From: Anaerolineae bacterium
GTDB lineage: Bacteria; Chloroflexota; Anaerolineae; CG2-30-64-16
Assembly: GCA_034434235.1 (NCBI GenBank)
Contig: DAOTZV010000182.1
Span: forward strand, 10,713-74,712
Direction of reading: 5' to 3'
Length of the DNA stretch: 64,000 nucleotides
Shown here: piece by piece, positions 1 through 57,632 of the stretch
Position numbering within the stretch: the first letter of the stretch is position 1
How the letters are laid out: each line of letters starts with the position of its first letter
The notes under the pieces: model-generated
The model's input: only the letters and a program-made list of their open reading frames with translations
The model's database searches: none
What the model was told of the DNA's origin: nothing
Translations under genes and position numbers: made by a program

Positions 1-1743
1 ACCGGCGATCCCTTGCCCCCCGGCACGAACGCGGTGATCATGGTGGAAGATGTGCAGGTGCGGGAAGAAGGCCAATCGGCAGATCAGCAAAGCGGCGAAG
101 CGACAGAGCAGCAGGCCGGCCGGGGGGCGATCGAGGTGTTGGCCGCGGTGCCGCCGTGGCAACATGTGCGGCCGATGGGCGAAGACATCGTCGCGACCGA
201 GTTGATCTTGCCGGCCAATCATTTGTTGCGGCCGCAGGATATCGGCGCGGCGGCCGGTGCCGGCCATGCGCGGCTTTGCGTGCGCCGCAAGCCGCGGGTG
301 GCCATCCAGCCGACGGGCACCGAGCTGGTGCCGCCCGGCAGCAACGTGCGGCCGGGCGACATCATCGAGTATAACTCGCTGGTGTTGGGCGCCATGATCA
401 GCGAATGGGGCGCGGCCGTCACCCGCCTGCCGCCGCTCAAGGACGACTACGCCGCGATCCGGGCGCGTATCCTGGAGGCCGGCCGCGACCATGACCTGGT
501 GATCGTCAATGCCGGCTCATCGGCCGGCTCCGAGGACTTCACCGCGCGCATCATCGCCGAGCTGGGCCAGGTGTTGGTGCACGGCATCGCCATCCGGCCG
601 GGCCACCCGGTGATCCTGGGGTTGATCGAGCTGCCGGAAGAGACGAGAAACAGCGAGCGTCAAGCGTCAAGCGTCAAACGCCGGATGCCGGTGATCGGGT
701 TGCCGGGGTATCCGGTGTCGGCCGCGATCACGTGCGAGCTGGTCGTTCGCCCCACGATTGCGCGCTGGTTGGGCCAGCCGGTGGAGCCGCCGGCCGAGAT
801 CACCGCCACGATCACGCGCAAAGTCGTGAGCCCGGAGGGGGAAGAGGAGTTCCTGCGCGTGACGGTGGGCCAGGTGGGCGATCGCGTGGTGGCCACTCCT
901 TTGCCGGGCGGCTCCGGCGTGCTGATGTCGCTGGTGCGGGCCGACGGCATCGTGCGCATTCCGCGCGGCGAGGGCGGCTTCGAGCCGGGCACGGCCGTCA
1001 CCGTGGCGCTCTACCGCTCGCCGGCCGCCATCCGCCACACGATCGTGGCCATCGGCAGCCACGACCTGACCCTCGACCTGCTGGCCGACGAGCTGGGCCG
1101 GCGCCAGCCCGGCTGGCGGCTCAGCTCGGCTAACGTCGGCAGCCTGGGCGGGCTGTTGGCGCTCGGCCGCGGCGAGGCGCACCTGGCCGGCTCGCACCTG
1201 CTCGACGAGACGACCGGCGAGTACAATCTGCCGTACATCCGGCGCTACCTGGCCGGCGTTCCCGTGCGCGTGATCGGCTTCGTGCGTCGCGTGCAGGGAT
1301 TGATCGTGCCGCGCGGCAACCCCAAGGGGATTCGCGATCTGGCCGATCTGACCCGCCCCGACGTGAGCTTCATCAACCGGCAGCGCGGCGCGGGCACGCG
1401 CATCCTGCTCGATTACCGCCTGAAACAGGCGGGCATCAACCCGCGGCAGATCCAGGGCTACGAGCGCCAGGAGTTCACGCACCTGGCCGTGGCGGCCGCG
1501 GTTGCTTCGGGCGCGGCCGATTGCGGCCTGGGCATCCTGGCCGCGGCCCGTGCGCTGGATCTCGACTTCGTGCCTCTGGACGAAGAGCGGTACGACCTCA
1601 TCGTGCCGGCGCGCTTCTACGACGAGCCGCTCCTGGCGCCGCTGCTGGCGATCGTGAGAGATCCGGCGTTCCAGGCCCGCGTGGAGGCGTTGGGCGGCTA
1701 CACGGCCGCCGACATGGGAAAGGTGTTGGCAGAAGTAGAATGA
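1..1743 (+). CDS. moeA: Molybdopterin molybdenumtransferase MoeA fused to a C-terminal PBP-like (periplasmic-binding-protein-like, molybdate/tungstate-type) domain. The 5' end is truncated by the window edge.
   Basis: The frame is open from nt 1 with no start codon; roughly 100 aa of MoeA N-terminus are missing. MoeA motifs are present: LPPGTNAVMVED, IRPGHPV, GLPGYPVSA. The C-terminal ~230 aa (HTIVAIGSHDLTLD...INRQRGAGTRILLD) resembles the PBP-like module often fused to MoeA. The stop overlaps the next gene's start (ATGATG at 1740-1745). Confidence 0.8.
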   Translation, partial: TGDPLPPGTNAVIMVEDVQVREEGQSADQQSGEATEQQAGRGAIEVLAAVPPWQHVRPMGEDIVATELILPANHLLRPQDIGAAAGAGHARLCVRRKPRVAIQPTGTELVPPGSNVRPGDIIEYNSLVLGAMISEWGAAVTRLPPLKDDYAAIRARILEAGRDHDLVIVNAGSSAGSEDFTARIIAELGQVLVHGIAIRPGHPVILGLIELPEETRNSERQASSVKRRMPVIGLPGYPVSAAITCELVVRPTIARWLGQPVEPPAEITATITRKVVSPEGEEEFLRVTVGQVGDRVVATPLPGGSGVLMSLVRADGIVRIPRGEGGFEPGTAVTVALYRSPAAIRHTIVAIGSHDLTLDLLADELGRRQPGWRLSSANVGSLGGLLALGRGEAHLAGSHLLDETTGEYNLPYIRRYLAGVPVRVIGFVRRVQGLIVPRGNPKGIRDLADLTRPDVSFINRQRGAGTRILLDYRLKQAGINPRQIQGYERQEFTHLAVAAAVASGAADCGLGILAAARALDLDFVPLDEERYDLIVPARFYDEPLLAPLLAIVRDPAFQARVEALGGYTAADMGKVLAEVE

Positions 1744-2126
1744 TGGATGAACAAACCCACGCGACCCGCGCAGAGACATCGCCGGCGCGCGTCTTGCCCC
1801 TGCCCCCGCCGACCCGGCCGATCCCGCGGCTGATCCTGTGGGATGGGTCGGGCCGGCCCGACGAAGAGACGCTGCGCGGCCGGCTTGCGGCCGCGGGCTA
1901 TCAGGTCGTGAAATGGTCGAACGAGCCGGCTACGGGCTATCCGCCGCACGCGCACATCTACCCGGAGCTGCTCTGGCTCATCAGCGGAAGCCTGACGGTG
2001 ATCCTGACGGCCGAGCGCCGGCTGCTCGAGCTGGCGCCGGGCGACCGCATCGAGATCCCCCAGGGACTGATGCACGGCACCATGGCCGGGCCGGACGGCG
2101 CCAGCTATCTCCTGGCGACGAAATAG
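1740..2126 (+). CDS. Small cupin-domain protein
   Basis: ATG at 1740 overlaps the moeA stop. Cupin motifs GYPPHAHIYPELLWLISG ... GDRIEIPQGLMHG. 128 aa. Confidence 0.6.
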   Translation: MMDEQTHATRAETSPARVLPLPPPTRPIPRLILWDGSGRPDEETLRGRLAAAGYQVVKWSNEPATGYPPHAHIYPELLWLISGSLTVILTAERRLLELAPGDRIEIPQGLMHGTMAGPDGASYLLATK

Positions 2127-2135
2127 GACGCCGGC

Positions 2136-3278
2136 TCAGCTCCGGGTCAGCTCGCGGGCGATGATCACGCGCTGGATCTGGCTGGTGCCCTCGTAGATCT
2201 GGTAGATCTTGGCGTCGCGCATCAGCTTCTCGACCGGATATTCGCGACCGTAGCCGTAGCCGCCGAAGACCTGGACCGCGTCGGTGGTGGCTTGCATGCA
2301 CATATCGGCCGCGAAGGCCTTGGCGAAGGCGGCCTCTTTGACGTTGGGTTGTCCGTGATCCACCAGCCAGGCCGCCTTCCAGGTGAGGAGGCGAGCGGCC
2401 TCGATGTTCATCGCCATGTCGGCCAACATGAAGCTGATCGCCTGGTGCGCGATGAGCGGCTTGCCGAAGGCCCGGCGCTCCTGGGCGTAGCGCAGCGCCT
2501 CCTCGAGCGCCCGGCGGGCCACGCCGACGGCTGCCGCGGCCACCGGCGGCCGGGAGTGGTCGAAGACGCGCATGGCGAGCAGAAAGCCTTCCCCTTCGCC
2601 CCCCAAACGCGCTTCCAGCGGGACGCGGACATCCTCCAGGACGATCTCGCCCGTCCAGGCCGCGTGTTGGCCCATCTTCGGGATCGGCTTGCCGCAGGCG
2701 ACCCCGGGCCGGTCGCGCTCCACGATGAACGCAGTGATGCCCTGGTGCCGCGCGGCCGGATCGGTCTTGGCGAACACGACGAAGAAGCTGGCGACCGGCG
2801 CGTTGGTGATCCAGGTCTTGGTGCCGTTCAGGATGTACTCGTCGCCGCGGCGCACCGCGGTCGCCTGGATGCCCGCCACATCGGAGCCGGCCGCGGGTTC
2901 CGTGAGCGCGTAGGCGGCCAGTTCGCCGCCGTCAGTCAGGCGCGGCAGGTATCGTTGCTTCTGCTCCTCGGTGCCGGCCAACAGGATCGGCCAGGCGGCC
3001 AGGTTGTTCAGCATGATCGCCGTCTGGATGCCCGAGCACGCCCAGGCCAGTTCCTCGTTGATGAGACATTCTTCCAGCACGCCCAATCCCGGGCCGCCGT
3101 ATTCCGGCGGGATGTTGGAGCTGAGCAAGCCCAGCTTCTGCGCCTTCTTGATGATGGGCCAGGGGTATTCGTCGCTGCGGTCGTAGTGCTCGGCGGCGGG
3201 CAAGATTTCCTTTTGCGCGAACCGCCGCGCCGTGTCGCGGATCATCTCTTGCTCTGCGGAGAGGGTGAAGTCAAGCAT
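2136..3278 (-). CDS. Acyl-CoA dehydrogenase
   Basis: Full-length ACAD fold: [22 protein letters not shown]..., GGYGY..., C-terminal [18 protein letters not shown]. The ORF's first 8 codons are trimmed to the MLDF start. Confidence 0.9.
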
Positions 3279-3289
3279 CGGAACACCTC

Positions 3290-4999
3290 CTATTCCACCC
3301 ACAACGGCACGAACTTGAATTGATCCACGTCTACCAGCCCCATGTCCGTCAGCTTTAGATGCGGGATCACCTCCAGCGCCAGGAAACTGAGGGTCATGAA
3401 AGGATCATGGAGGGCCGTGCCCAGGCTACGCGCGGCCTCGATGACCTCGTCGAGCTGGCGACGCACCTCGGTGATCGGCCGGTTGGACATCAGCCCGGCG
3501 ACCGGCAGCGGCAGGCGGGCCAGGATGCGCACTCCGTCGGCTACGGCCAATCCGCCGCCCATGTCCGCGATGGCGCCGGCCGCGGTGGAGAGCGAGATGT
3601 TGTCGGTGCCCGCGACCACCAGGTTGTGATGGTCGTGCGCGATGGTGGACGCGATCGCGCCCCGGCGCAATCCCAATCCCTGCACGAACCCCTTGCCCAC
3701 CCGGCCGGTCGCCATGTGCCGCTCGATCACGGCCATCTTGAGGATATCGCGCTCGATATCGGGCACGGCGAAGCCCGAAGCCGTGGGGATCTCCAGGATG
3801 CGGTCTTCGGTGATCAGGCTATCGGGCACCGCGCCGATGACGTGCGCATAGCGCCCTTCGGCCGGGATGGTGAAGTCTACCGTGTGCCAGTTGACGTTCA
3901 TCGAACCGCGCAGATAAGAAGGCCGATCGGGCAGATCGAAAGGCAACAACCGGCCGTTTTCGGCCACGATCTGGCCGCTGCGGATCACCAGGCGCACGCG
4001 AAACTCCTGGGGATCGTCGAACACGATCAGGTCGGCGCGGCTGCCGGGCCGGATGCCCCCGCGATCGTAGAGGCGGAACCATTCGGCCGTGTTGAGGGTC
4101 GCCATGCGGATCGCCGTCACCAGATCCACGCCCCCGCGAATGGCCGCGCGCACCAGGTGATCCACGCTCCCTTCGTCCAGCAGGTCGGCCGGGTGGCGGT
4201 CGTCGGTGCAGAAGCAGATGCGCCGCGCGTTGTCGCAGGAGAGGAGCGGCAACAGCTCGCCCAGGTTGTGCGCGTTGGTGGCCTCTCGAATGAGGACGTA
4301 CATGCCCAGGCGCAGTTTCTCGCGTGCCTCCTCTACGGTCGTGCATTCGTGATCCGAGCCGATGCCGGCGGCCAGGTAGGCATTCAGCGCCTTGCCCGTC
4401 AGGCCGGGCGCGTGGCCATCGAGCACCCGGCTCTTGAACGCCTCGATCTTCTCCAGCGTGTTCGGGTCTTCGTTGACCACCCCCGGGTAGTTCATCATCT
4501 CGCCCAGGCCGAGCACCCAGCGGTCGTTTTGCAGCGCGGCGATGTCCTTCGCCTCCAGATATGCGCCGGCGGTCGCCATGTGGGTGGCCGGGACGCACGA
4601 AGGCACCATCACGAACATGCTGAGCTGGCCGTATTTCGCCTGATCGAACATGTAACGGATGCCGTCGAGCCCCAACACGTTGGTGATCTCGTGCGGATCG
4701 GCGATGACCGAGGTGACTCCGCGCGGCACGACCGCGGCCGCGAACTGGCGCACGCCCACCATCGAGCTTTCGATGTGGACGTGCGCGTCTATCAGGCCGG
4801 GCGCCAGGTAGCTGCCGGCCAGGTCTATCTCGCGCTGTCCCTCGTAGCCGGGACCGATGCCGGCGATGCGGGCGTTGTAGATCGCCACATCGGTGGGGTA
4901 GATCTCGCCCGAATAAACGTTCACCAGTTGCGCGTTGCGCAACACCAGATCGGCCGGCGCGTCGCCCCGCGCCACGCGTATCAGGCCATTCAGTTCCAT
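3290..4999 (-). CDS. ade: Adenine deaminase
   Basis: Amidohydrolase metal-binding signature: [13 protein letters not shown], ...DHE..., [10 protein letters not shown], ~569 aa as expected for Ade. Start MELNGL has an AGGAGG RBS 7 nt upstream on the minus strand. Confidence 0.85.
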
Positions 5000-5031
5000 G
5001 ACGCCTCCTGTCGCGAAGAGATACCCGTGCC

Positions 5032-5082
5032 GCAAGCCAGAGGCTTGCACAGGCCGAAAGGGCCACAAGCCAGAGGCTTGTG
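5032..5082. repeat. Two tandem copies of a palindrome of the form (C)ACAAGCC-AGA-GGCTTGTG, lying in the ade 5' leader of the divergent ade/BMP intergenic region
   Basis: GCAAGCCAGAGGCTTGC at 5032-5048 and CACAAGCCAGAGGCTTGTG at 5064-5082. The same palindrome family (CAAGCC-TCC-GGCTTG) recurs at 49112 and 56064. Confidence 0.7.
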
Positions 5083-5138
5083 CAACCTCAACACATGCGA
5101 TTTGACCGATTATACCACATCCACATGATGCCAGTCAT

Positions 5139-5166
5139 TTGCAGAAATGCAGCTTTCGGCTAGAAT
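5139..5166 (+). promoter_or_regulatory. Candidate sigma70-type promoter for the BMP ABC transporter operon
   Basis: TTGCAG-N16-TAGAAT. It sits ~150 nt upstream of the ATG at 5314. Confidence 0.35.
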
Positions 5167-5313
5167 AGCGATTGTAATCTCAGCGGTACCGGCCGATTCA
5201 CGCATGGCAGATTGTACTCCGACAGAAAGGTGGTGATCGAGCGACCGATTTCCGTGTCTTTCCCCGTTTGCCGACGATTCAAATTCCGCATGTCACCCAG
5301 AAGGAGGAGCACC

Positions 5314-6600
5314 ATGTTGCACAAACGCTTTTGGGGCCTGGTGGCCCTGTTGACCGTCCTGTCTCTCATCGTGGGCGCCTGCGCGCCCGCCCCCACGCCC
5401 GCGCCTGCGCCGGCCGCCAAGGCCGAGCCGACCAAGGCGCCGGAAGCGCCGAAGGCGGCCGAACCGACCAAGGCCCCGGAGAAGCCGGCCTTGCAGATCC
5501 CCGATGTCGTCCAGGGCAAGTTCAACGTCGCCATGGTCTTGATCGGCCCGCACGATGACGGCGGCTGGAGCCAGGCCCACTACGAAGGCCTCGAGTACAT
5601 CAAGGCCAATGTGCCCAACGTGAATGTCGCCTACGTCGAGAACGTGCCCGAGGGCACCGACTCGGAGCAGGTGTTCCGCAGCCTGGCCCGCAAGGGCTTC
5701 AACCTGATCTTCGGCACCTCGTTCGGCTTCATGGATCCGATGGAGACGGTCGCCAACGAGTTCCCCAAGGTCATGTTCGTCCACATCAGCGGCTATAAGT
5801 CCAACGAGAAGAACTTCGGCAACCTGTTCGGCGCGATGGAAGACATGAAATACCTGGCCGGCATGATCGCCGGCGCGCGGGCCAAGAAGGACGGCAACCC
5901 CAAGCTCGGCTACATGGCCACCTTCCCCATTCCCGAAGAGCTGCGCCTGGGCAACGCCATCGCGCTCGGCATGAAGAAGACGTGCCCGGAGTGCACCATG
6001 GACGTGCGCTGGATCAACACCTGGCACGATCCGGTCATCGAGAAGCAGGCCGCCGAATCGCTATTCGATGCCGGCGCGCAGGTGGTCTTCACCGGCGCGG
6101 ATACGCCGGCCGTGGCCGATGTGGCGCAGGCCAAGGGCAAGTGGGGCGTCACCTATGACTGGGTGGGCTCCTGCAAGGTGGAGCGCTGCCTCACCGCACC
6201 GTACTGGAACTGGGGCCCCATCTATGCCGACATCACCAAGAAAGTCCAGGCCGGCACCTACAAGCCGGGGTGGCAGTATTTCGACGCGGATTCCGGCGGC
6301 CTGGGCATCTACGGCCTGATGGAAGGCCAGAAGCTGACGAAGGGCATGGAGGATCTGCCGCCCGAGGTCATCAAGGATGTCAAGGATCTGCTGGCCAAGA
6401 TGCTGAAGGGCGAGTTCACCCGCTTCGATGTCTTCGCCGGCGAGATCAAGGACAACAAGGGCAAGGTGATCGTGCCCAAGGGCGAGAAGATGCAGCAAGC
6501 CGACCTGGATCAGTTCCCGCCCGGCGCCGAGGGCCTGAAGTGCAAGTACTGCATGTACTGGTGGGCCGAGGGCATCACCGCGGAGCTGCCGAAACAATAA
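5314..6600 (+). CDS. BMP-family (basic membrane lipoprotein, Med/PnrA-like) ABC transporter substrate-binding lipoprotein, probably for purine nucleosides
   Basis: GAAGGAGGAG RBS, then a signal peptide with a LIVGAC lipobox, an Ala/Pro/Lys-rich linker, and a BMP fold (VAMVLIGPHDDGGWSQAHYEGL...). Confidence 0.85.
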   Translation: MLHKRFWGLVALLTVLSLIVGACAPAPTPAPAPAAKAEPTKAPEAPKAAEPTKAPEKPALQIPDVVQGKFNVAMVLIGPHDDGGWSQAHYEGLEYIKANVPNVNVAYVENVPEGTDSEQVFRSLARKGFNLIFGTSFGFMDPMETVANEFPKVMFVHISGYKSNEKNFGNLFGAMEDMKYLAGMIAGARAKKDGNPKLGYMATFPIPEELRLGNAIALGMKKTCPECTMDVRWINTWHDPVIEKQAAESLFDAGAQVVFTGADTPAVADVAQAKGKWGVTYDWVGSCKVERCLTAPYWNWGPIYADITKKVQAGTYKPGWQYFDADSGGLGIYGLMEGQKLTKGMEDLPPEVIKDVKDLLAKMLKGEFTRFDVFAGEIKDNKGKVIVPKGEKMQQADLDQFPPGAEGLKCKYCMYWWAEGITAELPKQ

Positions 6601-6718
6601 GCTGGAAGCTAGAAGCTGGTAGCTGGTAGGGCGGTAGATCGGCGAGCCGATTGAGTCGGCTGCCGATCTACCGGCATGTGGTCTTCGCCTACCGGCATGT
6701 GATCCTCGCGAGGTTCTG

Positions 6719-8266
6719 ATGCCCGAACCCGTGAACGCCGTGGAGATGCACGGCATCGTCAAACGGTTTCCCGGCGTCCTGGCCAACGATCACGTGGACT
6801 TCGTGCTGCGCCAGGGCGAGGTGCATGCCTTGCTCGGCGAAAACGGGGCGGGCAAGAGCACCTTGATGAACATCCTGGCCGGCCTCTATCGGCCCGACCA
6901 GGGCACGATCCTGGTGAACGGCCAGCGCGTCCACTTCAACTCCCCGCGCGATGCCATCGCCGCCGGCATCGGCATGATCCATCAACACTTCATGCTGGTC
7001 CCTTCGCAGACCGTCACCGAGAACATCGTCCTCGGCCTGGATACCCCGCGCTTCTTCCTCCGCCTGGCCGAGCTGGACCGCCAGATCCTGGAGCTGCAAG
7101 CCCGCTACGGCCTGAAGGTGGACCCCAAGGCCAAGATCTGGCAGTTGTCGGTCGGCGAACAGCAGCGCGTGGAGATCCTCAAGATGCTCTACCGCGGCGC
7201 GCGGGTGCTCATCATGGACGAGCCGACCGCGGTGTTGACCCCGCAAGAGGTCGAAGAGCTGTTCGTCACCCTGCGCGGCATGGTCGCCAGCGGACATTCG
7301 ATCGTCTTCATCAGCCACAAGCTGGACGAGGTGCTCGCCATCGCCCATCGGATCACCGTGTTGCAACATGGCCGGGTGACTGCCGCCGGGCTGGACGCCC
7401 GGTCGGTGACCAAGCGTCAGCTTGCGCAGTTGATGGTCGGCCGCGAGGTGGTGTTCACCGTGCAGAAGCCGCCGGCCCGGCGGGGCGAGGTGGTGTTGCG
7501 CATCGAAGACATCTGGGCCGACAGCGATCGCGGCCTGCCGGCCCTGAAGGGGCTTTCGCTTGAGGTGTGCAGCGGCGAGATCGTCGGCGTGGCGGGGGTG
7601 GCCGGCAACGGACAAAGCGAGCTGGCCCAGGTGATCACCGGCCTGCGCAAGTGTCGCCGCGGCCGGGTGCTCATCAACGGCCAGGACATCGCCAACCGGT
7701 CGCCGGCCGCGGCCATCGCGCAGCAGATCGCCCACGTGCCGGAAGACCGCACGGGCGTGGGCACTGCGCCCGGCCTGAGCGTGGCCGACAACCTGATCAT
7801 GAAGAGCTATCGGTTGCCGCCGGTCTCCGACGGCTGGGTGCTCAACCGCCCCGTGATCCGCCAGCAGGCCGAGAAGCTCAAGACAGATTACGACATCATC
7901 GCGCCGTCGGTGGATGTCCAGGCGCGGCTGCTGTCGGGCGGCAACCTGCAGAAGGCCATCCTGGCGCGCGAGATGTCGGCCGGACCAAAGCTGATCGTCG
8001 CGGTGCAGCCGACGCGCGGGCTCGACGTGGGCGCGATCGAGGCGGTGCAACGCGTGCTGCTCAACGAGCGCAGCCGCGGCACGGCCATCCTGCTCATCTC
8101 CGAGGAGCTCGACGAGTTGATGTCGCTCTCCGATCGCATCATCGTGATGTATGAAGGCGAGATCATGGGCGAAGTGAAGCCCGAGGAGACCACCCTGGAA
8201 CAGCTCGGCCTGATGATGGCCGGCCAGAAGCTGGAACAGGCTCAGATCACCCCTGCCGCTGAGTGA
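6719..8266 (+). CDS. ABC transporter ATP-binding protein with two fused ABC domains
   Basis: Two Walker A/signature sets: GENGAGKST...LSVGEQQRVEI...IMDEPT, and GVAGNGQSEL...LSGGNLQK. Confidence 0.9.
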   Translation: MPEPVNAVEMHGIVKRFPGVLANDHVDFVLRQGEVHALLGENGAGKSTLMNILAGLYRPDQGTILVNGQRVHFNSPRDAIAAGIGMIHQHFMLVPSQTVTENIVLGLDTPRFFLRLAELDRQILELQARYGLKVDPKAKIWQLSVGEQQRVEILKMLYRGARVLIMDEPTAVLTPQEVEELFVTLRGMVASGHSIVFISHKLDEVLAIAHRITVLQHGRVTAAGLDARSVTKRQLAQLMVGREVVFTVQKPPARRGEVVLRIEDIWADSDRGLPALKGLSLEVCSGEIVGVAGVAGNGQSELAQVITGLRKCRRGRVLINGQDIANRSPAAAIAQQIAHVPEDRTGVGTAPGLSVADNLIMKSYRLPPVSDGWVLNRPVIRQQAEKLKTDYDIIAPSVDVQARLLSGGNLQKAILAREMSAGPKLIVAVQPTRGLDVGAIEAVQRVLLNERSRGTAILLISEELDELMSLSDRIIVMYEGEIMGEVKPEETTLEQLGLMMAGQKLEQAQITPAAE

Positions 8267-8273
8267 GGAACCG

Positions 8274-9398
8274 ATGGCCATGACTGAAACGACCGCAACG
8301 GGGTTGCGCGTGCCCTTCACCCTGCGCGTCGAGCCGCGCCTCGAAGTGCCGCGCTGGCTGGGCGCTGTTACATCGGCCGGCGCGCTGATCCTGGCCTTCG
8401 TGATCGGCGGCGGGATCATCGCGCTGGCGGGCGGCGATCCGATTCGCTCGTATCAACATATCTTCAAGGCCGCGTTCGGCAGCGTGGGCGTGCTGAACGA
8501 TACGCTGGTCAAAGCGACCCCGCTCATCCTGGTGGGACTGGCGTGCGCGCTGGCGTTTCGGATGCGGCTGTGGAACATCGGCGCAGAGGGGCAGTTCTTC
8601 CTGGGCGCCTGGGGTGCCAGCGCGGTGGTCTTGATCCCCTTGCTCCCCAAGACCGCGCCGCGACCGCTCATGTTGTTCGTCATGGCGCTGGCGGGCTTCG
8701 CCTGTGGCGCGCTGTGGGCCTGGTTGCCCGGCTATCTGAGGGCCAGGTTGAACGTCAACGAAGTGGTCACCACCCTGATGATGAACTACATCGCCGTCTC
8801 GTGGGTGCTCTATTGGGTGTTCGGCGCGTGGAGCGAGGGGGGCTTCCAGATGTCCCCCGTTTTCCCGAAGAACGCCTGGTTGCCGCGGCTGACCGATTAC
8901 GCCGGCGCTGTAGAAGCCTTCGCCGGCCTGACGCTGCATTTGGGCTTCTTGTTCGGCCTGATCGCGGCCGTGCTGGTATGGTTCATCCTGCAACGCAGCC
9001 GCTGGGGCTATGAGATCCGGCTGATCGGCGACAATCCGCGCGCGGCGCATTACGCGGGCGTGAACATGGTGCGCAACACCGTGCTGGTGATGATGCTTTC
9101 GGGCGGGCTGGCCGGACTGGCCGGCATGTCGGAGATCGCCGGCGTGGTCCATCGGCTCCAGGGCGCGATCTCGCCCGGCTACGGCTTCACGGGCATCATC
9201 GTCGCCTGGCTGGCCAAGCTCAATCCGTTCGCGGTGGTATTGGTCTCGGTCCTGTTCGGCGGCCTGATCCTGGCCGGCCGCGAGATCCAGCCTTCGGGCG
9301 TGCCGCGCATGCTTCAAGGCGTCATCCTCTTCTGCGTGATCGCCAGTGATGTCCTGCTGCGCTATCGGGTGCGGATCGTGCGGCGAGGTGCCGAATGA
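8274..9398 (+). CDS. ABC transporter permease (BMP-type)
   Basis: Polytopic membrane protein in an operon with the BMP binding protein and ATPase. Its end overlaps the next permease by 4 nt. Confidence 0.85.
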   Translation: MAMTETTATGLRVPFTLRVEPRLEVPRWLGAVTSAGALILAFVIGGGIIALAGGDPIRSYQHIFKAAFGSVGVLNDTLVKATPLILVGLACALAFRMRLWNIGAEGQFFLGAWGASAVVLIPLLPKTAPRPLMLFVMALAGFACGALWAWLPGYLRARLNVNEVVTTLMMNYIAVSWVLYWVFGAWSEGGFQMSPVFPKNAWLPRLTDYAGAVEAFAGLTLHLGFLFGLIAAVLVWFILQRSRWGYEIRLIGDNPRAAHYAGVNMVRNTVLVMMLSGGLAGLAGMSEIAGVVHRLQGAISPGYGFTGIIVAWLAKLNPFAVVLVSVLFGGLILAGREIQPSGVPRMLQGVILFCVIASDVLLRYRVRIVRRGAE

Positions 9399-10363
9399 TT
9401 GACTGGATCATCGTCCTCCAGGCCGGCGTGGCCACCGGCACCGTGCTCCTCTTCGCGACCGTCGGCGAGATCCTGGCCGAGCGGTCCGGCGTCATGAACC
9501 TGGGCGTCGAGGGGATGATGCTGATCGGCGCGATGACGGCGTACAAGACGGCCGTCCTGATCGGCCAGCCGTGGCTGGGCGTCCTTTTCGCGATGCTGGC
9601 GGCCGGCGCGCTGAGCCTGCTTCATGCGCTGGTGACGATCAGCTTTCAGGCCGACCAGGTGGTGAGCGGCCTGGCGACGAACTTCATGGGGATCGGGTTG
9701 AGCCTGGTGTTGGGCGAGGGATTGAGCAAGGCCGGCACCGTGGCGTTGTTGCCTTCGTACACCGTGCCGATCCTGAGCAGCATTCCGATCATCGGGCCGA
9801 TCTTTTTCACCAATCACAGCGTGATGGTGTATGTGGGTTATTTGTTGACGCCGGCCGTCTGGTTCTACATCAATCGGACGCGGCCCGGGTTGCATCTGCG
9901 CGCAGTGGGCGAATATCCGGCTGCGGCCGATGCGCTCGGCATCAACGTCTATCGCCTGCGCTATCAGTATGTCTTCGTCGGCGGCGTATTGGCCGGACTG
10001 GCCGGCGCCACGATCAGCCTGGCGGTATCGCCCGGCTGGTTCAGCGAGCTGACCACTTCGGGCCAGGGGTGGATCGCCATCGGCCTGGTGATCTTCGCTC
10101 AGTGGGATCCGTGGCGGGCGCTCGCCGGCGCGTATATGTTCGGCGCGGTCCGCCGTCTGATCCTGGACCTGCAGGGGCCGCAGACGCTGCTCGGCCTGGC
10201 CAATCCCTTCTACTACATGCCGAAGCTGGGCTTCTTCCTCCAGATGTTGCCGTATGCCCTCGTGATCCTGATCCTTTTCATCGGTTCACGCGAGGCGATG
10301 AGAAAACGCATCGGCGCGCCGGCCGCGCTGGGCACGCCCTACGTGCGCGGGGAGCGCGGATAG
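9395..10363 (+). CDS. ABC transporter permease (BMP-type)
   Basis: Second permease of the operon, hydrophobic throughout. Confidence 0.85.
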   Translation: MIDWIIVLQAGVATGTVLLFATVGEILAERSGVMNLGVEGMMLIGAMTAYKTAVLIGQPWLGVLFAMLAAGALSLLHALVTISFQADQVVSGLATNFMGIGLSLVLGEGLSKAGTVALLPSYTVPILSSIPIIGPIFFTNHSVMVYVGYLLTPAVWFYINRTRPGLHLRAVGEYPAAADALGINVYRLRYQYVFVGGVLAGLAGATISLAVSPGWFSELTTSGQGWIAIGLVIFAQWDPWRALAGAYMFGAVRRLILDLQGPQTLLGLANPFYYMPKLGFFLQMLPYALVILILFIGSREAMRKRIGAPAALGTPYVRGERG

Positions 10364-10382
10364 ACGCGGGAGGAACGCCTCG

Positions 10383-10419
10383 TATAAAACAAAACGCCCG
10401 CCCCCTCTTCAGGGGCGGG
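10383..10419 (-). terminator. Intrinsic-terminator-like GC hairpin with a U-tract on the minus strand. It may act for both convergent genes.
   Basis: GCCCGCCCC-TCTTCA-GGGGCGGGC, preceded on the plus strand by TAAAACAAAAC (read as GTTTTGTTTTA on the minus strand). It lies between the permease end (10363) and the end of the minus-strand repeat protein (10501). Confidence 0.5.
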
Positions 10420-10500
10420 CCACGATCGGCCTGAAATCACAGCCAACATGTTCGGCCCTCGTCGGTCGAGCCGCGCCGGGATGATGTGCCGCTGTGCGCC

Positions 10501-11295
10501 TCAATCACCGTGATAGACGAGCGTGATGCCGAGTTCCTGGCAGCGTTCCCGCACCTCATCGCCGATGCTCATGGCGATCATGATGCCCTCCACCTTGACG
10601 CCCGGATTCAACGCCTGTACGAAGGCCACTTTCTCGTGTAGCCGATCTATATCTTCCCACTCGCAGTAACTTTTCACTTCAAAGACCGAGATCTGACCAT
10701 CCTGAGCAAGGATATCTATCTCGAATCGCCGTTGCCCCGGGAGGCCAACCACGCCCTTTTCGTCCACCATTCTCTGGCGCAGCCGAAGCTGATCGGGCTT
10801 GATGTCGGGCCGACGCAAGGCGACCCGCAACGCGCCGGCCACCACATCCTCCAGCCGGCGGCCCGAACGCCGCTGCAACCCTCCGACAACGCCCTCAACC
10901 CAATCGCGCAGATCGCTCATTTCTTGTTGCAGGCCTTCGAGGCGCCGATCCACCTCTTCGAAGCGCTGATCTACATGCTCGAAGCGCCGATCAATCTCTT
11001 CGAAGCGCCGGTCGATCTGCTCGAAGCGCCGATCAATCTCTTCGAAGCGCCGGTCGATCTGCTCGAAGCGTTGGTCGATCTGCTCGAAGCGTTGATCTGT
11101 CTTGGCGCTGAAGCGTCTGAATTCGCCGCGAAACTCCCGCATTTCCGCAAGGATCGCCGCCGTCTCTTCTTTGGTGGTGAAAACCCGCAGAAAAGCACGG
11201 AACGCGCGACGTTCCAGATCGGGGTCGCGTTCGATCATCTCCGGAAGCTGCTCTTCCAGAATATGCAAGACTTCTTCATCCTTCAATTTCAACAT
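10501..11295 (-). CDS. Coiled-coil protein: eight tandem heptad repeats (D-x-R-F-E-x-I) in the middle and a C-terminal PD-(D/E)xK-nuclease-like core (EIDIL...VFEVK)
   Basis: Translation reads DQRFEQI DQRFEQI DRRFEEI DRRFEQI DRRFEEI DRRFEHV DQRFEEV DRRLEGL. C-terminal RRFEIDILAQDGQISVFEVKSY fits the D...ExK nuclease motif. A hairpin plus T-tract terminator follows downstream. Confidence 0.6.
   Translation of the reverse strand: MLKLKDEEVLHILEEQLPEMIERDPDLERRAFRAFLRVFTTKEETAAILAEMREFRGEFRRFSAKTDQRFEQIDQRFEQIDRRFEEIDRRFEQIDRRFEEIDRRFEHVDQRFEEVDRRLEGLQQEMSDLRDWVEGVVGGLQRRSGRRLEDVVAGALRVALRRPDIKPDQLRLRQRMVDEKGVVGLPGQRRFEIDILAQDGQISVFEVKSYCEWEDIDRLHEKVAFVQALNPGVKVEGIMIAMSIGDEVRERCQELGITLVYHGD
10936..11096. 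repeat. Near-perfect 21-nt tandem repeat (~8 units, including an exact 42-bp duplication) inside the CDS above
   Basis: GAAGCGCCGATCAATCTCTTC and GAAGCGCCGGTCGATCTGCTC alternate. 10981-11022 is identical to 11023-11064. Confidence 0.85.
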
Positions 11296-35292: not shown

Positions 35293-35299
35293 ACAAACT

Positions 35300-35340
35300 T
35301 GCTTATCCTTTGACTAAAACATCAGTACAAATGATAAGCA
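35300..35340. promoter_or_regulatory. Inverted repeat TGCTTATC-N25-GATAAGCA overlapping the -10 and leader of the XPB operon; candidate operator
   Basis: 8-bp perfect arms at 35300-35307 and 35333-35340. Confidence 0.4.
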
Positions 35341-41190: not shown

Positions 41191-41246
41191 CGTCGAACGC
41201 TGAGCGTCGGGCGTCGGGCGTCAAGCGTCAAACGTCAGGCGTCGGG
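41191..41246. repeat. Heptanucleotide CGTCRRR microsatellite (8 units) in the NUDIX 5' region, overlapping the DUF4129 gene's 3' end
   Basis: cgtcgaa cgctgag cgtcggg cgtcggg cgtcaag cgtcaaa cgtcagg cgtcggg. Confidence 0.8.
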
Positions 41247-42932
41247 GCCGGCTGTCCGGCGTCGGAGTTCTTGCATCAGCCGGCGCCAGATCGCCTGGAC
41301 GCCTTGGGCCTCGTCGGCCGAGATGGGCCGGCGATCGTAGCGGGCGGCCAGAAAGGCCGATGTGAGCGCCTCGACCTCGGCCCCGGCTTCGGGCCATGCG
41401 GCCTCGAGCTGCTGCGCGAACTCGGACGGGGTGCGGTGCGCCGGCCGGGCCACGCCCCGTTCGGCCGCGTGGCCGACCATCCGCAGGTAAAAGTAGCGCA
41501 CGCGCTCGCGCGGGGCCAGTGCACCCACGCGCACGCCGGCCGGGCGGAGCGAGGCGGCCGCGCGGCCGCGCGCTGCGGCCATCCGCCGGCGCACCGCGCC
41601 GGCCGCGGCCTGGAGCGCCGCGCCGGCCCGCGCCCAGCGCGCCCGCCACCAGTAGCGCAGCCGCATCAGCCAATCGCCGAGGCGCCCCCGCAACATGCCG
41701 TGCGCGCCGAGATAGGATAGCCCGAAATAAACGGCCACCAGCGCGATGATGCTCCACAGCACCGCGCCGCCCAGCCAATCGGGAAGCCAGCTCAGCGCTT
41801 CGGCCTGCGACGGCACCTGGGGCATCGCCGACAGGTCGGGCCGCGACCCCGCATCGATCTGCGTCAGGAAGCGCAGGGGCCACAGGAGCAGCGCCAGGAA
41901 CACCGCCAGCAGAAACATCAGCAGATAGCCCAGGCGCATGACCAGGGCCAACAGCGCCTCCACCGCGGCCGAGAGCCAGCTCGTCGTGCCCATGGGCAGA
42001 AACGCCGCGACCAGGCCGATCAACAGTACGGCGAGCAGGCTGTTCACGTGCCAGCGGCGGAGCACGACCGGCTGCACTTCCACATCCTGATTGTACCAGC
42101 GGCCGCGCAAGACCGCCAGCCGCGCCTGACTGATCAGCAGGAGGCCGGCCAGGAAATAGGCCAGCAACGCGGCGAGCAGTCCGGCCGGCAAGCCGAGGCC
42201 GCGCACGCCCAGCCGCAGGGCGCTGGCGGCGAAGTCCACGCGCGCCAGCGCCGCGAAGAGGACCAGGATCGCGCCGCCGGCCGTCCAATGCGCAACGAAG
42301 CGCGCCAGGATCTCGCTGCGCGGCATGGCCCGGCCGGCGCGCAACTGGCTGCGGCTTTCCCCCCACAGCACGCTCTCGTGCGCGGCGATCTCGTCCGGCT
42401 GCAACGCCAGGTCCAGGAAATCGCCGGCCATGCCCACCGCCAGCCCCCAGGCGATGAGGATCCAGACGCCGAAGATGGCGAACGGCGCGTCCAGGAACGC
42501 GAACGGCTCGCGCAACCAGAGCTGTACCTCGGCCATGCCGGGCCAACCGCTCCCGAAGGTCCACACGGCCAACCGGAACAGGATCAGCAGCACGGCGACC
42601 TCGCCCAGGCGATACGCCAGGCCGCGGCGATCGCGCCAGCTCGGCCGGCCGAGCTGCAACGTGCTGTAGACCCCCTCGAGCGCGGCCGCGAACGCGCCCG
42701 GCAACACATATCCCATGCGCCACGGCGCACCGATCAGATGCAACAGCGCCAGAGGACCGGCCACGACGCTTGCCGCCACCAGGGCGATCAACAGCGGCCG
42801 GAAGGCGCTGCTCACCCAGGCCGCGTCGAAGAAGTCCTGGTACGCGGGCCGCCGGCCGGGGAGAGGCCCCGTGACCCGACCGCCGTCGCGAGCTTCGGTC
42901 GCCGGGCTCGAAGCATCAGGCGTATGCGCCAC
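41235..42932 (-). CDS. DUF4129-domain polytopic membrane protein (partner of MoxR/DUF58)
   Basis: GAGGAGG RBS, then GTG at 42932. Multiple TM helices. C-terminal RYFYLRMVGHAAERG...RTPSEFAQQL...FLAARYDRRP matches the DUF4129 pattern. The in-frame upstream 180 codons of the ORF-track entry overlap DUF58 and look non-coding. Confidence 0.7.
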   Translation of the reverse strand: MAHTPDASSPATEARDGGRVTGPLPGRRPAYQDFFDAAWVSSAFRPLLIALVAASVVAGPLALLHLIGAPWRMGYVLPGAFAAALEGVYSTLQLGRPSWRDRRGLAYRLGEVAVLLILFRLAVWTFGSGWPGMAEVQLWLREPFAFLDAPFAIFGVWILIAWGLAVGMAGDFLDLALQPDEIAAHESVLWGESRSQLRAGRAMPRSEILARFVAHWTAGGAILVLFAALARVDFAASALRLGVRGLGLPAGLLAALLAYFLAGLLLISQARLAVLRGRWYNQDVEVQPVVLRRWHVNSLLAVLLIGLVAAFLPMGTTSWLSAAVEALLALVMRLGYLLMFLLAVFLALLLWPLRFLTQIDAGSRPDLSAMPQVPSQAEALSWLPDWLGGAVLWSIIALVAVYFGLSYLGAHGMLRGRLGDWLMRLRYWWRARWARAGAALQAAAGAVRRRMAAARGRAAASLRPAGVRVGALAPRERVRYFYLRMVGHAAERGVARPAHRTPSEFAQQLEAAWPEAGAEVEALTSAFLAARYDRRPISADEAQGVQAIWRRLMQELRRRTAGPDA

Positions 42933-42943
42933 GATCCACCTCC

Positions 42944-44149
42944 TCACGCTGCCAGGGGAAGCGATCGGCCGGCCGCCCAGCGCTTGAGATCGGCCTCGTT
43001 CGCCACCAGATGCGCGGCCACGCCGAGTTGCCGGGCCCGCTCGCGAATGACCCCGAACTGGCCGTGCGGCTCGATCACCACCAGCACGGGGTTGAGGCCG
43101 GCCCGCAGCAGGCGGTGCGCCGCCCGGCAGATGGCCTCGTCGCCGGTCGGGCTGACGATGATCACGGTGGTGCCCCATCCCAGCCCCAGCGCGGCGGTCG
43201 GCAGCCAGTCGGCCAGCGGCGCCAGGTCGGCCGTCTGGACGCGCGCCAGCCATTCCAACAGCTTCATCAGATGGACGCGGCCCGGCCGCGGGGGGATCAG
43301 CCAGCGGCCGGCGCCGGAAAGGGAATCCACGCCGTTGCAGCCCAGGCCCACCGCCTGGCGTTGTTCGGCCAGATAGCCGGCCAGCGACGCCGCCACCACG
43401 ATGCCCCATTCGCTGGCGCCGTAGCGCAACTGGGTCGTATAGGCCCGCGCGCTGAGCTCCAGAAAGATCATGCTGGTCAACGACACGGCCGGCGCGTATT
43501 GCTTCACCTGGAGGGTGTTCGTGTGCGCGCTGCTCTTCCAGTCAATTGTCCGCAGCGGATCGCCGGGCCGATATTCGCGCTTGCCGATCACGCGCGTCGG
43601 GTCGGCGAAGATGCGTTGTTGGCTGGCGATGGACCCGTGCGGCGAGCGCGACGTCAGATCCACGTGCATGAGCGGGATCACGCGCGGATAGACCGTCAGA
43701 TGGTCGAGCGTCTCCACCCGGCCCTGGACCTCGGCGAAGCCGAAGAGGTCGCCGACCGTCATGGCGGCCGGGCCGATCTGATAGTACCCGCGCTGGCGAC
43801 CGATCAGGTCGTAGTGCACCGTCAGGCGTTCCTTGGGCCGCAGCGACACGACCCGACGCACCCCCGCGCCGGCGGCAATCGCCAACGGCGGCGACTCCTC
43901 CAGCCGCAACCAGGGCACCGGCCACCAGCTCGTGTTCTCGATCTCGATCTCGACCCGGCTCGTCTCGCCCGGAAAGATGTGATCGGTGAAGTTGCGGCGC
44001 ACCTGCAGGCGCGGGAGGCTACGGCCGGTCCACCAGCGCGCCAACAGATACGAGCCGGCCAACACATAGACCAGATAGAAGACGAAGTCCACCTGCAAGA
44101 TGACGGCGATCAACAGCAAGAACAACAACAGGAGCAAGATGTCCGACAT
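42944..44149 (-). CDS. DUF58 (vWA-like) protein
   Basis: N-terminal TM hairpin, then REYRPGDPLRTIDWKSSA (the DUF58 hallmark). The ATG lies 4 nt after the rsmI stop. Confidence 0.8.
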   Translation of the reverse strand: MSDILLLLLFLLLIAVILQVDFVFYLVYVLAGSYLLARWWTGRSLPRLQVRRNFTDHIFPGETSRVEIEIENTSWWPVPWLRLEESPPLAIAAGAGVRRVVSLRPKERLTVHYDLIGRQRGYYQIGPAAMTVGDLFGFAEVQGRVETLDHLTVYPRVIPLMHVDLTSRSPHGSIASQQRIFADPTRVIGKREYRPGDPLRTIDWKSSAHTNTLQVKQYAPAVSLTSMIFLELSARAYTTQLRYGASEWGIVVAASLAGYLAEQRQAVGLGCNGVDSLSGAGRWLIPPRPGRVHLMKLLEWLARVQTADLAPLADWLPTAALGLGWGTTVIIVSPTGDEAICRAAHRLLRAGLNPVLVVIEPHGQFGVIRERARQLGVAAHLVANEADLKRWAAGRSLPLAA

Positions 44150-44843: not shown

Positions 44844-44847
44844 GGCG

Positions 44848-50590: not shown

Positions 50591-50626
50591 TGAAGCGCCG
50601 GCCATTTTCATCATGCAAGGAAGACC

Positions 50627-54738: not shown

Positions 54739-54891
54739 TGTCGAAACTGAGATAACGATCACTTGACGCGCCCAGAGGATTGAGCTACATTTGTACTATA
54801 GCGTCCGGCCTGGGCGCGTCGTGGTTTAAATCATGAGTTCGCGCAGCGATCACGAAGCATCCATCGTTGCGACTTCAGGGAGGAGGTTTCG

Positions 54892-56043: not shown

Positions 56044-56063
56044 GGGCCATCTATCCTCCACCC

Positions 56064-56090
56064 GTAGCGCAAGCCTCCGGCTTGCGCTAC
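56064..56090. repeat. Palindrome, family 1, after the citrate synthase stop
   Basis: GTAGCGCAAGCC-TCC-GGCTTGCGCTAC. Confidence 0.7.
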
Positions 56091-56111
56091 GGTCCTCTCC
56101 GGGCAAGCTGC

Positions 56112-57632
56112 TCAACCGCGCGCCAGTTGCGGCACGATGAAGCGCAGCAGCGCGTAAAGGGACAAGATCGGCAGACCGGCAAACGGCAACGCAAACAGCA
56201 GGCCGTGCAAGACAGGCAACGGACGGCCGACCACCCGCTCGATCAGCGCCGGGCCGAAATCCAGGACCGCCACGCCGGCCGCAAACGCCACGGTGATCGC
56301 CAGCGGCCATTTCGGCAATCCCGCGCCGCTCAAGACCCCCCAGGCGGCCAGCGCAACGGTCAAGACCCCCAATCCCGCCGCCAGATAGCGCCCCACTCCC
56401 CCGGCCACCACCGCCTCCCAACCCACCGCAAACGCGAACGCCAGCGGGATCAGCGCGGTGAACAGATAGCGGCCCTGATGCTGCACGAACTGGGTGTTAT
56501 ACCAGACGTAGGTGAGGAGCGTCAGGAGCACGGATGAGAGCAGAAGGAGAAAGGCGCGGCGCTGTGAAACGTGAAACGTGAAATGTGAAACGTGATGTTT
56601 GACGTTTGACGTTTGACGTTCGACGCGCATGATCGCGCCGGCCGCGGCCAGGCCGCTCAGCAGGGCCAGGGCGAAGTAGATGCGGCTATCCATAAAGACG
56701 CCCAGCCAGCCGAAGACTCCCCAGAAGCTCTTGAAGGTGAACTCGATCGCGCGGCGGAGATACGCGGCCCAGCCGACCTGCGCCAGAAACTCGCCGGTGC
56801 GGGTTTGCCCCACCACGATTTGGTCGTGCCGGATCAACCCCAGGAAATCGGGCCAACCGTAGACCGCCAGATTGCGCGCATACCACGGCAGGGCGATCAG
56901 CGCCAGCGGCCCGACGACCAGGGCCGCCTCCAGGAGCATGGGGCGCCATCCGACCCGCAGCCGACGCCAACGCCAGATCAGCACGCCCGCGGCAAGCGCC
57001 ACCGCGATGTAGGCCGTCGTCTTGGTGATCAGGATCAGGCCCAACAGGATGCCCAGGATGGCCGATGAACGTCGGCCCGCGGCCGCGGGCGCCAACACCT
57101 GGCCGATCAAGATGTAGAGCACGACTGCGAAGAGCAGCTCGGCCAATACATCGTTGCCCACCTGCGAGACGGTCGCCAGATGTTGGGGCAAAAACGCCAC
57201 GAAAGCCGCCGTGGCCAGCGCCAGATGCCCGCGGCGCGGGGCCAGCCGCCGCGCGATCGCGTAGGCCGGCAACACCACGCCCGCGCCCAACAACACCGAA
57301 ACCAGCCGCAACGGCAACAGCGCGCCTTGCGTCAGGCCATACACCGGCGCCAGCAACGCGTAGTAGAGCGGCGGCTGATGGAATTCGTAGCGGATCGGAT
57401 CGATGCTCAGCCCGGCCGGAAACCGGCGGCTCTTGATTTCTTCCAGATATCCATGCGGATAGTCGCCCATTTGCAGCACGGGAAAGCTGGCCGTCGTGGC
57501 GACGAAACGGATATAGTTGTAATGCGCCGGCTCGTCGGGCGCCTGCCAGGCCGGCGTGCGCCACGCGAAGAGGGTGGCGAGCGCCAGATACGCAATGAGG
57601 ACGACCAGGAGGACGAAATGACGAAAACGCAT
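56112..57632 (-). CDS. GT-C-fold glycosyltransferase (PMT/ArnT-like, GT39/GT83-type) membrane protein
   Basis: ~11 TM helices, N-terminal DE-containing first loop (WQAPDEPAHY). A heptamer-repeat tract is inserted in-frame. Confidence 0.7.
   Translation of the reverse strand: MRFRHFVLLVVLIAYLALATLFAWRTPAWQAPDEPAHYNYIRFVATTASFPVLQMGDYPHGYLEEIKSRRFPAGLSIDPIRYEFHQPPLYYALLAPVYGLTQGALLPLRLVSVLLGAGVVLPAYAIARRLAPRRGHLALATAAFVAFLPQHLATVSQVGNDVLAELLFAVVLYILIGQVLAPAAAGRRSSAILGILLGLILITKTTAYIAVALAAGVLIWRWRRLRVGWRPMLLEAALVVGPLALIALPWYARNLAVYGWPDFLGLIRHDQIVVGQTRTGEFLAQVGWAAYLRRAIEFTFKSFWGVFGWLGVFMDSRIYFALALLSGLAAAGAIMRVERQTSNVKHHVSHFTFHVSQRRAFLLLLSSVLLTLLTYVWYNTQFVQHQGRYLFTALIPLAFAFAVGWEAVVAGGVGRYLAAGLGVLTVALAAWGVLSGAGLPKWPLAITVAFAAGVAVLDFGPALIERVVGRPLPVLHGLLFALPFAGLPILSLYALLRFIVPQLARG
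56564..56624. repeat. Heptanucleotide repeats (GTGAAAC x4 followed by GTTTGAC x4) inside the glycosyltransferase CDS
   Basis: gtgaaac gtgaaac gtgaaat gtgaaac gtga tgtttgac gtttgac gtttgac gttcgac. Reverse complement gives CGTCAAA units, as at 658-678 and 41191-41246. They encode ...RQTSNVKHHVSHFTFHV... in the protein. Confidence 0.85.

Follow-up and report, generated by a model that had tools for sequence, protein, structure and literature searches.

How do tandem repeats of a seven-nucleotide unit, which shifts the reading frame unless it is gained or lost in threes, come to lie inside protein-coding genes, and do they switch those genes on and off? The question is raised by a 64,000-nt stretch of DNA from an Anaerolineae bacterium of the Chloroflexota (GenBank assembly GCA_034434235.1, contig DAOTZV010000182.1, positions 10,713 to 74,712 of the forward strand), referred to here as the window. 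An earlier note on this DNA had described three tracts of a CGTCRRR unit, one within moeA, one between a DUF4129 gene and a NUDIX gene, and one within a glycosyltransferase gene, and had proposed that those within genes are either slipped-strand contingency loci or tolerated in-frame insertions. Here, we describe these tracts, their counterparts in strains and related species, and the processes that may have made them. We conclude that the tracts are probably heptanucleotide simple-sequence repeats, made locally by slippage or misaligned repair and tolerated in protein loops and intergenic spacers. They belong to a kind of repeat that is already known, and the finding reveals no new mechanism.

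Heptanucleotide tracts in the window and in related genomes

We refer to the three tracts as T1 (MoeA, 658–678), T2 (DUF4129/NUDIX, 41191–41246), and T3 (glycosyltransferase, 56564–56624). All three lie where the earlier note placed them, all have period 7 by Tandem Repeats Finder (TRF), and Pfam agrees with the gene calls. Shuffles and lag scans both indicate that the tracts are non-random. The two-unit CGTCRRR pattern CGTCRRRCGTCRRR, with ≤1 mismatch allowed, has 15 matches where 2.6 are expected, a number that 0 of 100 shuffles reach. Exact self-match runs of ≥10 in the window number six at lag 7, with 0–1 at each of the other lags between 4 and 12. Similarly, a degenerate scan of the window (18/21 matches) finds five regions at lag 7, two at lag 9, and none at the remaining lags; 50 shuffles gave none. 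An assembly artefact is ruled out, since the tracts recur in independent assemblies.

A fourth heptamer tract, T4, is absent from the earlier note. It lies on the plus strand at 6601–6628, in intergenic sequence directly after the TAA stop codon of a gene for a Bmp-family binding protein, and consists of the units GCTGGAA GCTAGAA GCTGGTA GCTGGTA (i.e., GCTGGWA ×4), which are unrelated to CGTCRRR. The view that one and the same unit makes up all three of the original tracts holds for T1, T2, and the CGTCAAA half of T3, with the GTGAAAC half of T3 being a different unit. CGTCRRR is therefore common to three of the four heptamer tracts, within a window of 64 kb. The tracts had also been described as locally richer in AT than the genome; this is true of T1 (GC 0.52) and T3 (GC 0.44) relative to the window (GC 0.667), and does not extend to T2 (GC 0.70).

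The window has a GC content of 66.7% and ordinary chromosomal gene content. The closest homologues carry the source names Anaerolineae, Anaerolineales, or Chloroflexota metagenome-assembled genome. None of the 34 window proteins scanned is a transposase, integrase, or reverse transcriptase; no Rfam family reaches the gathering threshold anywhere in the window; and there are no tRNAs in it.

For comparison, we used metagenomic loci of relatives (L001–L093), including 80 loci (693 kb) chosen for encoding relatives of the window's glycosyltransferase. In these 80 loci, exact runs of ≥12 matches are most frequent at lag 7, with 44 runs; the next most frequent is lag 8, with 12. The units are diverse (AGATGGC, AATCCGC, AATACGC, AAATCGT, AAACGTC, and others), and many are single-base neighbours of one another, as in the series CGTCAAA, CGTCAAT, CGTAAAT, CGCAAAT, and GGCAAAT. 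The 47 distinct units from L001–L093 have a mean GC of 55%, lower than that of the loci (63%), and contain an excess of the words AAT/ATT (z 5.4) and CAA/TTG (z 4.5). The excess extends to proteins, because a set of three 7-nt units passes through every reading frame once and so yields a period of seven residues. Exact 7-residue periodic runs are found in 25 of 128 glycosyltransferase homologues and 6 of 120 MoeA homologues, with ≤2 at any other lag, and other proteins also carry heptamer arrays. At least 18 of 48 clade tracts lie inside genes with the frame kept, as judged from the third-codon-position GC of their flanks; this fraction is a biased lower bound, since the test is crude, misses known in-gene cases, and draws on loci picked by way of the glycosyltransferase gene. 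Together, these data show that 7-nt arrays are common in this Anaerolineae lineage, with 8-nt arrays occurring less often.

Protein loops, a stop codon, and the orientation of the units

T1 lies within a MoeA-PBP_like fusion gene (13–1743, plus strand), identified by Pfam and by its homologues, whose 5′ end is cut by the edge of the window. Its perfect core, CGTCAAG CGTCAAG CGTCAAA (658–678, plus strand; 656–677 by TRF), encodes ERQASSVK. The three units described earlier are correctly positioned, and they are the homogenised centre of a longer array of six units and 42 nt (644–685, plus strand), which reads CGAGAAA CAGCGAG CGTCAAG CGTCAAG CGTCAAA CGCCGGA and encodes part of MoeA loop 2. The tract is at about residue 320 of 680 in its host and is flanked by the conserved MoeA motifs RPGHPVILG and GLPGYPVS. 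The earlier note had suggested mapping the tract onto MoeA structures. In alignments to solved structures, MoeA residues ~206–223 are an insertion, and the gap opposite T1 spans 17 residues in 1uz5 and 11 residues in the E. coli protein (2nqk). Orthologues have between a few and ~70 extra residues at this loop, heptamer-like in sequence. A second insert in the same protein, of ~21 residues (EEGQSADQQSGEATEQQAGRG; 64–126, plus strand), occupies loop 1 and is missing from L093. It is probably a decayed 8-nt repeat array, to judge from orthologues in which loop 1 holds either SANQRINE arrays (8-nt ×3) or ANGKWQM arrays (7-nt).

T3 lies within a gene for a GT39/PMT_2 (GT-C) glycosyltransferase by Pfam (56112–57662, minus strand). 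The coordinates and the host gene are as described in the earlier note; rather than a single family of units, T3 comprises two arms. On the plus strand, GTGAAAC ×4.6 (56564–56595) is followed by GTTTGAC ×3 and GTTCGAC (56597–56624). On the coding strand, the tract reads CGTCGAA CGTCAAA CGTCAAA CGTCAAA C ATCAC GTTTCAC ATTTCAC GTTTCAC GTTTCAC and encodes RQTSNVKHHVSHFTFHV, residues 347–366 of 516. The 5′ arm (56597–56625, minus strand; CGTCGAA followed by CGTCAAA ×3) encodes ERQTSNVK, and the 3′ arm (56564–56596, minus strand; GTTTCAC ×4.6) encodes HHVSHFTFHVS. In an AlphaFold2 model of the glycosyltransferase (mean predicted local distance difference test score [pLDDT] 83, predicted template modelling score 0.88), T3 spans the end of a helix (residues 326–351), a loop with pLDDT <50 (353–362), and the start of the next helix (365–391). 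This is the sole loop of very low confidence between two predicted helices of the model.

An alignment of 30 glycosyltransferase orthologues shows that the T3 site is hypervariable and bounded by two conserved hydrophobic segments. The loop varies in length from ~12 residues (L007–L011) to ~85 residues (L024), and in many lineages it consists of heptamer-derived peptides, such as ANGKWQI, ANGKWQM, AIRNTQHA, SYCVVRG, THHAPRT, and LRTTHYA ×5. A second loop (alignment columns 197–255) is likewise hypervariable. Of the two possibilities first raised for the in-gene tracts, tolerated in-frame insertion is thus supported: the loops differ greatly in length and sequence between orthologues and are missing or very short in some of them, the MoeA tract is an insertion, and the glycosyltransferase tract falls in a loop of low model confidence. 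The tracts do not correspond to conserved residues of the orthologues.

The third tract touches a gene in a different way. T2 consists of eight CGTCRRR units (41191–41246, plus strand), one of which is degenerate (CGCTGAG), with an outlying unit at 41260–41266. The number and position of the units are as first described, and the tract is not purely intergenic: it spans the 3′ end of the DUF4129 gene (41235–43409, minus strand; Pfam places DUF4129 at its end) and the spacer before the NUDIX hydrolase gene that lies downstream of it (40453–41142, minus strand; Pfam). The DUF4129 gene has its last three sense codons within T2 and takes its TGA stop codon (41235–41237, minus strand) from the tract; the reverse complement of CGTCAGG ×3 reads PDA*RLT.

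The orientation of the units matters because only one strand of each can be read through. (CGTCAAR)3 is stop-free and encodes RQ(A/T)S(S/N)VK, and its reverse complement contains TGA. Likewise, (GTTTCAC)3 is stop-free and its complement has a stop. Both in-gene tracts, T1 and T3, lie in the stop-free orientation. The DUF4129 frame meets T2 in the other orientation, the one with stops, and terminates at the first TGA; the same is true of the corresponding tract in L083.

This rule also accounts for the imperfect pairing of the two arms of T3. Relative to the reverse complement of the 5′ arm, each unit of the 3′ arm has one changed base. Were the arms fully complementary, the 3′ arm would consist of GTTTGAC units and contain an in-frame TGA, a stop that GTTTCAC lacks. 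In L082, L001, L002, and L003, the 3′ arm consists of ~2.5 ACGTTTG units (SRLTFDV), and a longer arm would create a TGA. The G-to-C change (GTTTGAC to GTTTCAC) may thus have permitted expansion to 4.6 units in the window, at the price of one C-C mismatch per unit. Despite these mismatches, the arms and their GC-rich flanks fold into an imperfect hairpin of ~80 nt (56553–56639, minus strand), with a predicted free energy of −34.9 kcal/mol as RNA (z −5.9) and a z of −4.2 as DNA. Inverted arm pairs one mismatch off complementarity are also found in L004 and L032. The other tracts are unlike T3 in this regard: T1 and T4 form no hairpin, and T2 folds no better than shuffles (z −0.08). Close to T4, on its 3′ side and upstream of an ABC ATPase gene, there are a long hairpin at 6634–6672 and a 21-nt direct repeat at 6668–6709.

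Could the tracts have been selected for a function of their own, e.g., as a basic cytoplasmic loop peptide, an mRNA or DNA hairpin at which translation or replication pauses, iterons that bind a protein, or, upstream of NUDIX, a −35-like TTGACG promoter element? The tracts encode hydrophilic, basic peptides (RQTSNVK), which would suit a loop between membrane helices; T3 folds well; TTGACG resembles a −35 hexamer, and a promoter scan gives one promoter-like match inside T3, on the strand opposite the glycosyltransferase gene; and the length of the MoeA array is conserved in three lineages (see below). We nevertheless consider a selected function very unlikely. Close orthologues show these loops to be hypervariable and dispensable, and the model confidence is very low at the T3 insert. 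No promoter-like or terminator-like site was found by scanning at T2, nor any terminator site at T3; Rfam offers no match; and the structure of T2 is matched by shuffles. The T3 hairpin and the U-rich stretch that ensues were also considered as an attenuator, a role that we rejected since the U-rich codons are those of the next membrane helix.

Stability between strains and turnover between species

The first-mentioned possibility, that the tracts are contingency loci, predicts that tract lengths differ between close relatives: gain or loss of a 7-nt unit would switch MoeA and the glycosyltransferase, and T2 would tune the expression of NUDIX or DUF4129. For T1 and T4, the closest comparison is L091, from another data set, which is 99.65% identical to window positions 1–11094. 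Both tracts are unchanged in L091. The single indel in these 11 kb is the loss of one CGCGCC unit at 5401–5406, within a hexamer repeat (5382–5411) near the 5′ end of the Bmp-family gene that thus differs by 6 nt between the window and L091; triplet-compatible repeats therefore do slip at the strain level. T2 is identical and gapless in seven independent assemblies at 99.6–99.96% identity, with all differences being point changes outside the tract. For T3, strains were compared at the protein level only, because exact-product look-ups for the window's glycosyltransferase and for P0001 and P0127 returned no match. The 90%-identity cluster of the glycosyltransferase has nine members (from JGI, ENA, NCBI, and Logan), and the T3 loop is invariant in the eight others. 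Members are 516 or 506 residues long depending on start-codon choice, apart from one fragment of 275 residues, and residues 242–516 are invariant except at three positions.

Hence, none of the near-identical strains or assemblies compared (one for T1, seven for T2, and eight for T3) has a tract of different length, and contingency switching is not borne out. There are reasons why it was attractive. As 7 is not a multiple of 3, a one-unit change would shift the reading frame, which follows from the sequence and is so far a potential only, with no shifted allele seen in any homologue. Known contingency loci of Haemophilus and Neisseria also have non-triplet tandem units in or next to a gene, and 7-bp repeats drive phase variation at the hmw1A and hmw2A promoters of H. 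influenzae (PMC8262952). In addition, the same glycosyltransferase loop in L017 holds 14 perfect GCACTAC units (98 nt, at 997–1097), making it the likeliest candidate, among the arrays compared, for genuine slippage-driven switching. However, contingency loci are long arrays at the N-terminus or promoter of surface or restriction-modification genes that vary between and within strains, and nothing of this kind was found here. Phase-variable repeats are long and concentrate at the N-terminus (PMC3315296), whereas the window's tracts are short, with three to four perfect units, and lie in mid-gene (T1 and T3) or at the stop codon (T2). The host genes are housekeeping genes. Moreover, the hexamer repeat slipped in the same 11-kb comparison in which the heptamer tracts did not. 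We therefore regard contingency switching as the least probable explanation, and a highly improbable one.

Between species, by contrast with strains, the arrays change. The MoeA array is 42 nt long and in the same register in the window, in L092 (90% nucleotide identity across the gene), and in L093 (87%). Its six units are CGGCCGA CGGCCAA CAGCCAA CGACCCA CGGCCAA CGGTGGG in L092 and CGCCCAA CGTCCAG GGCCCAG GGTCACA GGCCCAA CGCCGGG in L093. Identity within the array among the three is 52–64%, and the lag-7 self-match of each copy is 0.54–0.66. Adjacent units change in parallel and total length is kept, a pattern that favours homogenisation in concert over substitutions arising independently; the mechanism may be paired slippage or within-array conversion. 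At the T2 site, L083 (NUDIX 86% identical) has ~11 GACYTTY units versus GACGYYY in the window, and L084 (79%) has no array. At the T3 site, L081 reads CGTCGGC CGTCGGG AGTCAGG ... TTTGACG, and L082 has the 3′ arm only. Overall, relatives at 80–90% identity differ in unit and copy number and keep the 7-nt periodicity. We conclude that the arrays are old at their sites, that they grow, shrink, and change unit between species, and that they are stable between strains.

Origin of the tracts, known repeat systems, and significance

A plausible history of the tracts has five steps. First, replication slippage or misaligned repair on short direct repeats would seed an array locally and enlarge it. Second, as the positions of the tracts show, arrays survive only at sites where they do little harm, i.e., intergenic spacers and surface or inter-helix protein loops; within genes, orientation and frame show that only stop-free arrays whose total length is a multiple of three persist. 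Third, unit gain and loss or within-array conversion would turn the arrays over, yielding the pattern that is seen, in which the 7-nt period is kept, as is total length in MoeA, and the sequence of the units drifts at several times the rate of the gene around them. Fourth, inverted arms such as those of T3 may form by template switching, with an existing arm being copied from the complementary strand, and selection against an in-frame TGA, the effect of which can be read from the sequence, may have made the arms mismatched. Fifth, with only three to four perfect units, the window's tracts are stable over strain divergence and are not phase-variation switches, as the assemblies show.

Several points weigh against this account. 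Slippage was not observed, and close strains show no length variant of any heptamer tract. A one-unit change within a gene is a frameshift, such that length-neutral turnover needs paired events or conversion, which we assume. Families of units are found again at loci that are not homologous and in more than one genome: CGTCAAR occurs at three window sites, the 17-mer GCGTCAAGCGTCAAACG is present without mismatch in both T1 and T2, and units of the TACGCAA and GGCAAAT families lie in the glycosyltransferase, MoeA, and other proteins of many genomes. The units are enriched in AAT and CAA words. Neither the shared families nor the word bias is obviously predicted by purely local, neutral slippage, which also leaves the preference for 7 nt unexplained.

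A rival account is an active, family-specific process that spreads heptamer arrays between loci, for instance as a mobile hairpin element or by templated, enzyme-driven synthesis. On this view, a single family would have given rise to all three CGTCRRR tracts, and arrays of 7- to 8-nt units would often be inverted, hairpin-forming pairs. Such a spreading or templating process has long been suspected for the short tandemly repeated repetitive (STRR) sequences of cyanobacteria, and a comparable one for their small dispersed repeats. That three of the four tracts in 64 kb share a unit, and two of them a 17-mer, is consistent with spreading, as are the strong hairpin of T3, the near-complementary inverted arm pairs in L004 and L032, the occurrence of identical unit families at non-homologous loops of many genomes, and the biased composition of the units. 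We consider spreading unlikely all the same. No conserved ends or target duplications were apparent by eye when the window and L083 were compared with L084 at T2 and the window with L082 at the glycosyltransferase, comparisons that did not include a formal search. T1, T2, and T4 have no hairpin, and the T4 unit is unrelated to the others. In-place divergence suffices to explain the orthologous arrays; the CGTCCAG and CGGCCAA units of the T1 relatives are only one or two changes from CGTCAAG. Related genomes mix units (L082 and L093; L081 and L083), and the window has no candidate enzyme gene. The tracts also differ from elements of the repetitive extragenic palindromic (REP) or miniature inverted-repeat transposable element kind, which have many near-identical copies and inverted termini: only T3 is palindromic, units and lengths differ between tracts, and orthologous sites diverge gradually. 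Local slippage and tolerance thus remains the explanation that we favour, and it places the tracts among repeats that have been described in other bacteria.

The closest likeness is to the long simple-sequence repeats surveyed by Mrázek, Guo, and Shah in 2007. As that survey is summarised in PMC4679880 and PMC4692102, heptamers are the most abundant class of simple-sequence repeats with 5- to 11-nt units in most genomes surveyed, and polymerase slippage was proposed as their source. The summaries describe head-to-tail 7-nt units that are over-represented in free-living bacteria and vary in length and sequence between related species. The tracts described here share these features: tandem 7-nt units are present beyond chance, the excess of 7 nt is seen in the window, in the 693 kb of related loci, and in proteins, and relatives differ in copy number and unit at the same locus. 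They differ in one respect, since the summaries place non-triplet units mostly outside genes, whereas here about half of the sampled arrays are in frame within genes, in recurrent loops. This recurrent colonisation of protein loops is more pronounced than the surveys, so far as those summaries convey them, describe. On heptanucleotide or simple-sequence repeats in Chloroflexi or Anaerolinea, we found nothing relevant in the searchable literature.

Other known heptamers share some features with the tracts. The STRR sequences of Calothrix, Anabaena, and Nostoc (Mazel et al. 1990, cited in PMC4692102), together with the GGGGAYT repeat of Nostoc, are tandem 7-nt units with no known function, in which a few families are dispersed over many loci of one genome, occasionally in inverted arrangement. 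They belong to a different phylum, have other units, and are described mainly as intergenic; the host here is an Anaerolineae bacterium, the units differ from the canonical ones, and a shared unit is seen at three sites of the 64-kb window. The TAACTGA repeat of marine Beggiatoaceae and some cyanobacteria (PMC4679880) follows the same logic of orientation: one orientation has stops and overlaps gene ends only, and the other encodes a 7-residue repeat. This logic explains why T2 contains a stop codon and why T1 and T3 are read in the orientation that they have. In contrast to the many drifting units found here, for which in-gene loops are a major site, TAACTGA is a single favoured unit that is concentrated just upstream of start codons, with a role in translational regulation having been proposed (PMC4679880). 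Lastly, the GGGAATC arrays of Xanthomonas (PMC4692102) occupy matching positions between genes from one related species to the next and vary extensively in length and sequence, with some inverted pairs; they differ in being intergenic and G-rich, with the ability to form G-quadruplexes, whereas CGTCRRR and GTTTCAC have no G-runs.

The window also contains repeats with other periods. Between the convergent genes for a penicillin amidase and a response regulator, four tandem 37-nt units (28722–28855) each hold a hairpin of the form GGGCGAGAT-nnn-ATCTCGCCC; this region looks like a cluster of palindromic elements of the REP or bacterial interspersed mosaic element type. In the open reading frame at 10501–11295 (minus strand), which encodes 264 residues and has an atypically low third-position GC, a 21-nt repeat present in 7.4 copies (10937–11091) encodes the heptads DRRFEQI and EEIDRRF. 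This is a true protein-level repeat and not a 7-nt repeat. Repeats of 18 and 36 nt (CGCCCGCGGCCACCCAGG) at 20484–20635, in the N-terminal region of an SBP_bac_5 binding protein, probably encode a Pro/Ala-rich linker. Finally, within 29334–35313, a gene for an XPB/RAD25-type helicase (33511–35292, minus strand) adjoins an open reading frame of 607 residues with lower third-position GC (31691–33514), and a gene for a Helicase_C_3 protein (29334–31847) lies in the same neighbourhood.

What do the heptamer tracts mean for the biology of these bacteria? For annotation, odd low-complexity peptides in Anaerolineae proteins, such as RQTSNVK, AIRNTQH, and ANGKWQM, are to be read as translated 7-nt repeats in dispensable loops, not as domains or switches. 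For evolution, the lineage offers many natural cases of non-triplet repeats within essential-looking genes, including one orthologous array that keeps its period and length with a sequence turnover about four times that of the gene, as well as a repeat that supplies the stop codon of a gene. If an active process did spread arrays between loci, it would contribute greatly to new loop sequence in proteins that are otherwise conserved, and Chloroflexota would have an equivalent of the STRR and small-dispersed-repeat systems of cyanobacteria, perhaps served by an enzyme of its own. The natural cases described here could help with two old questions: why bacteria favour a 7-nt unit in long repeats, and whether arrays spread between loci.

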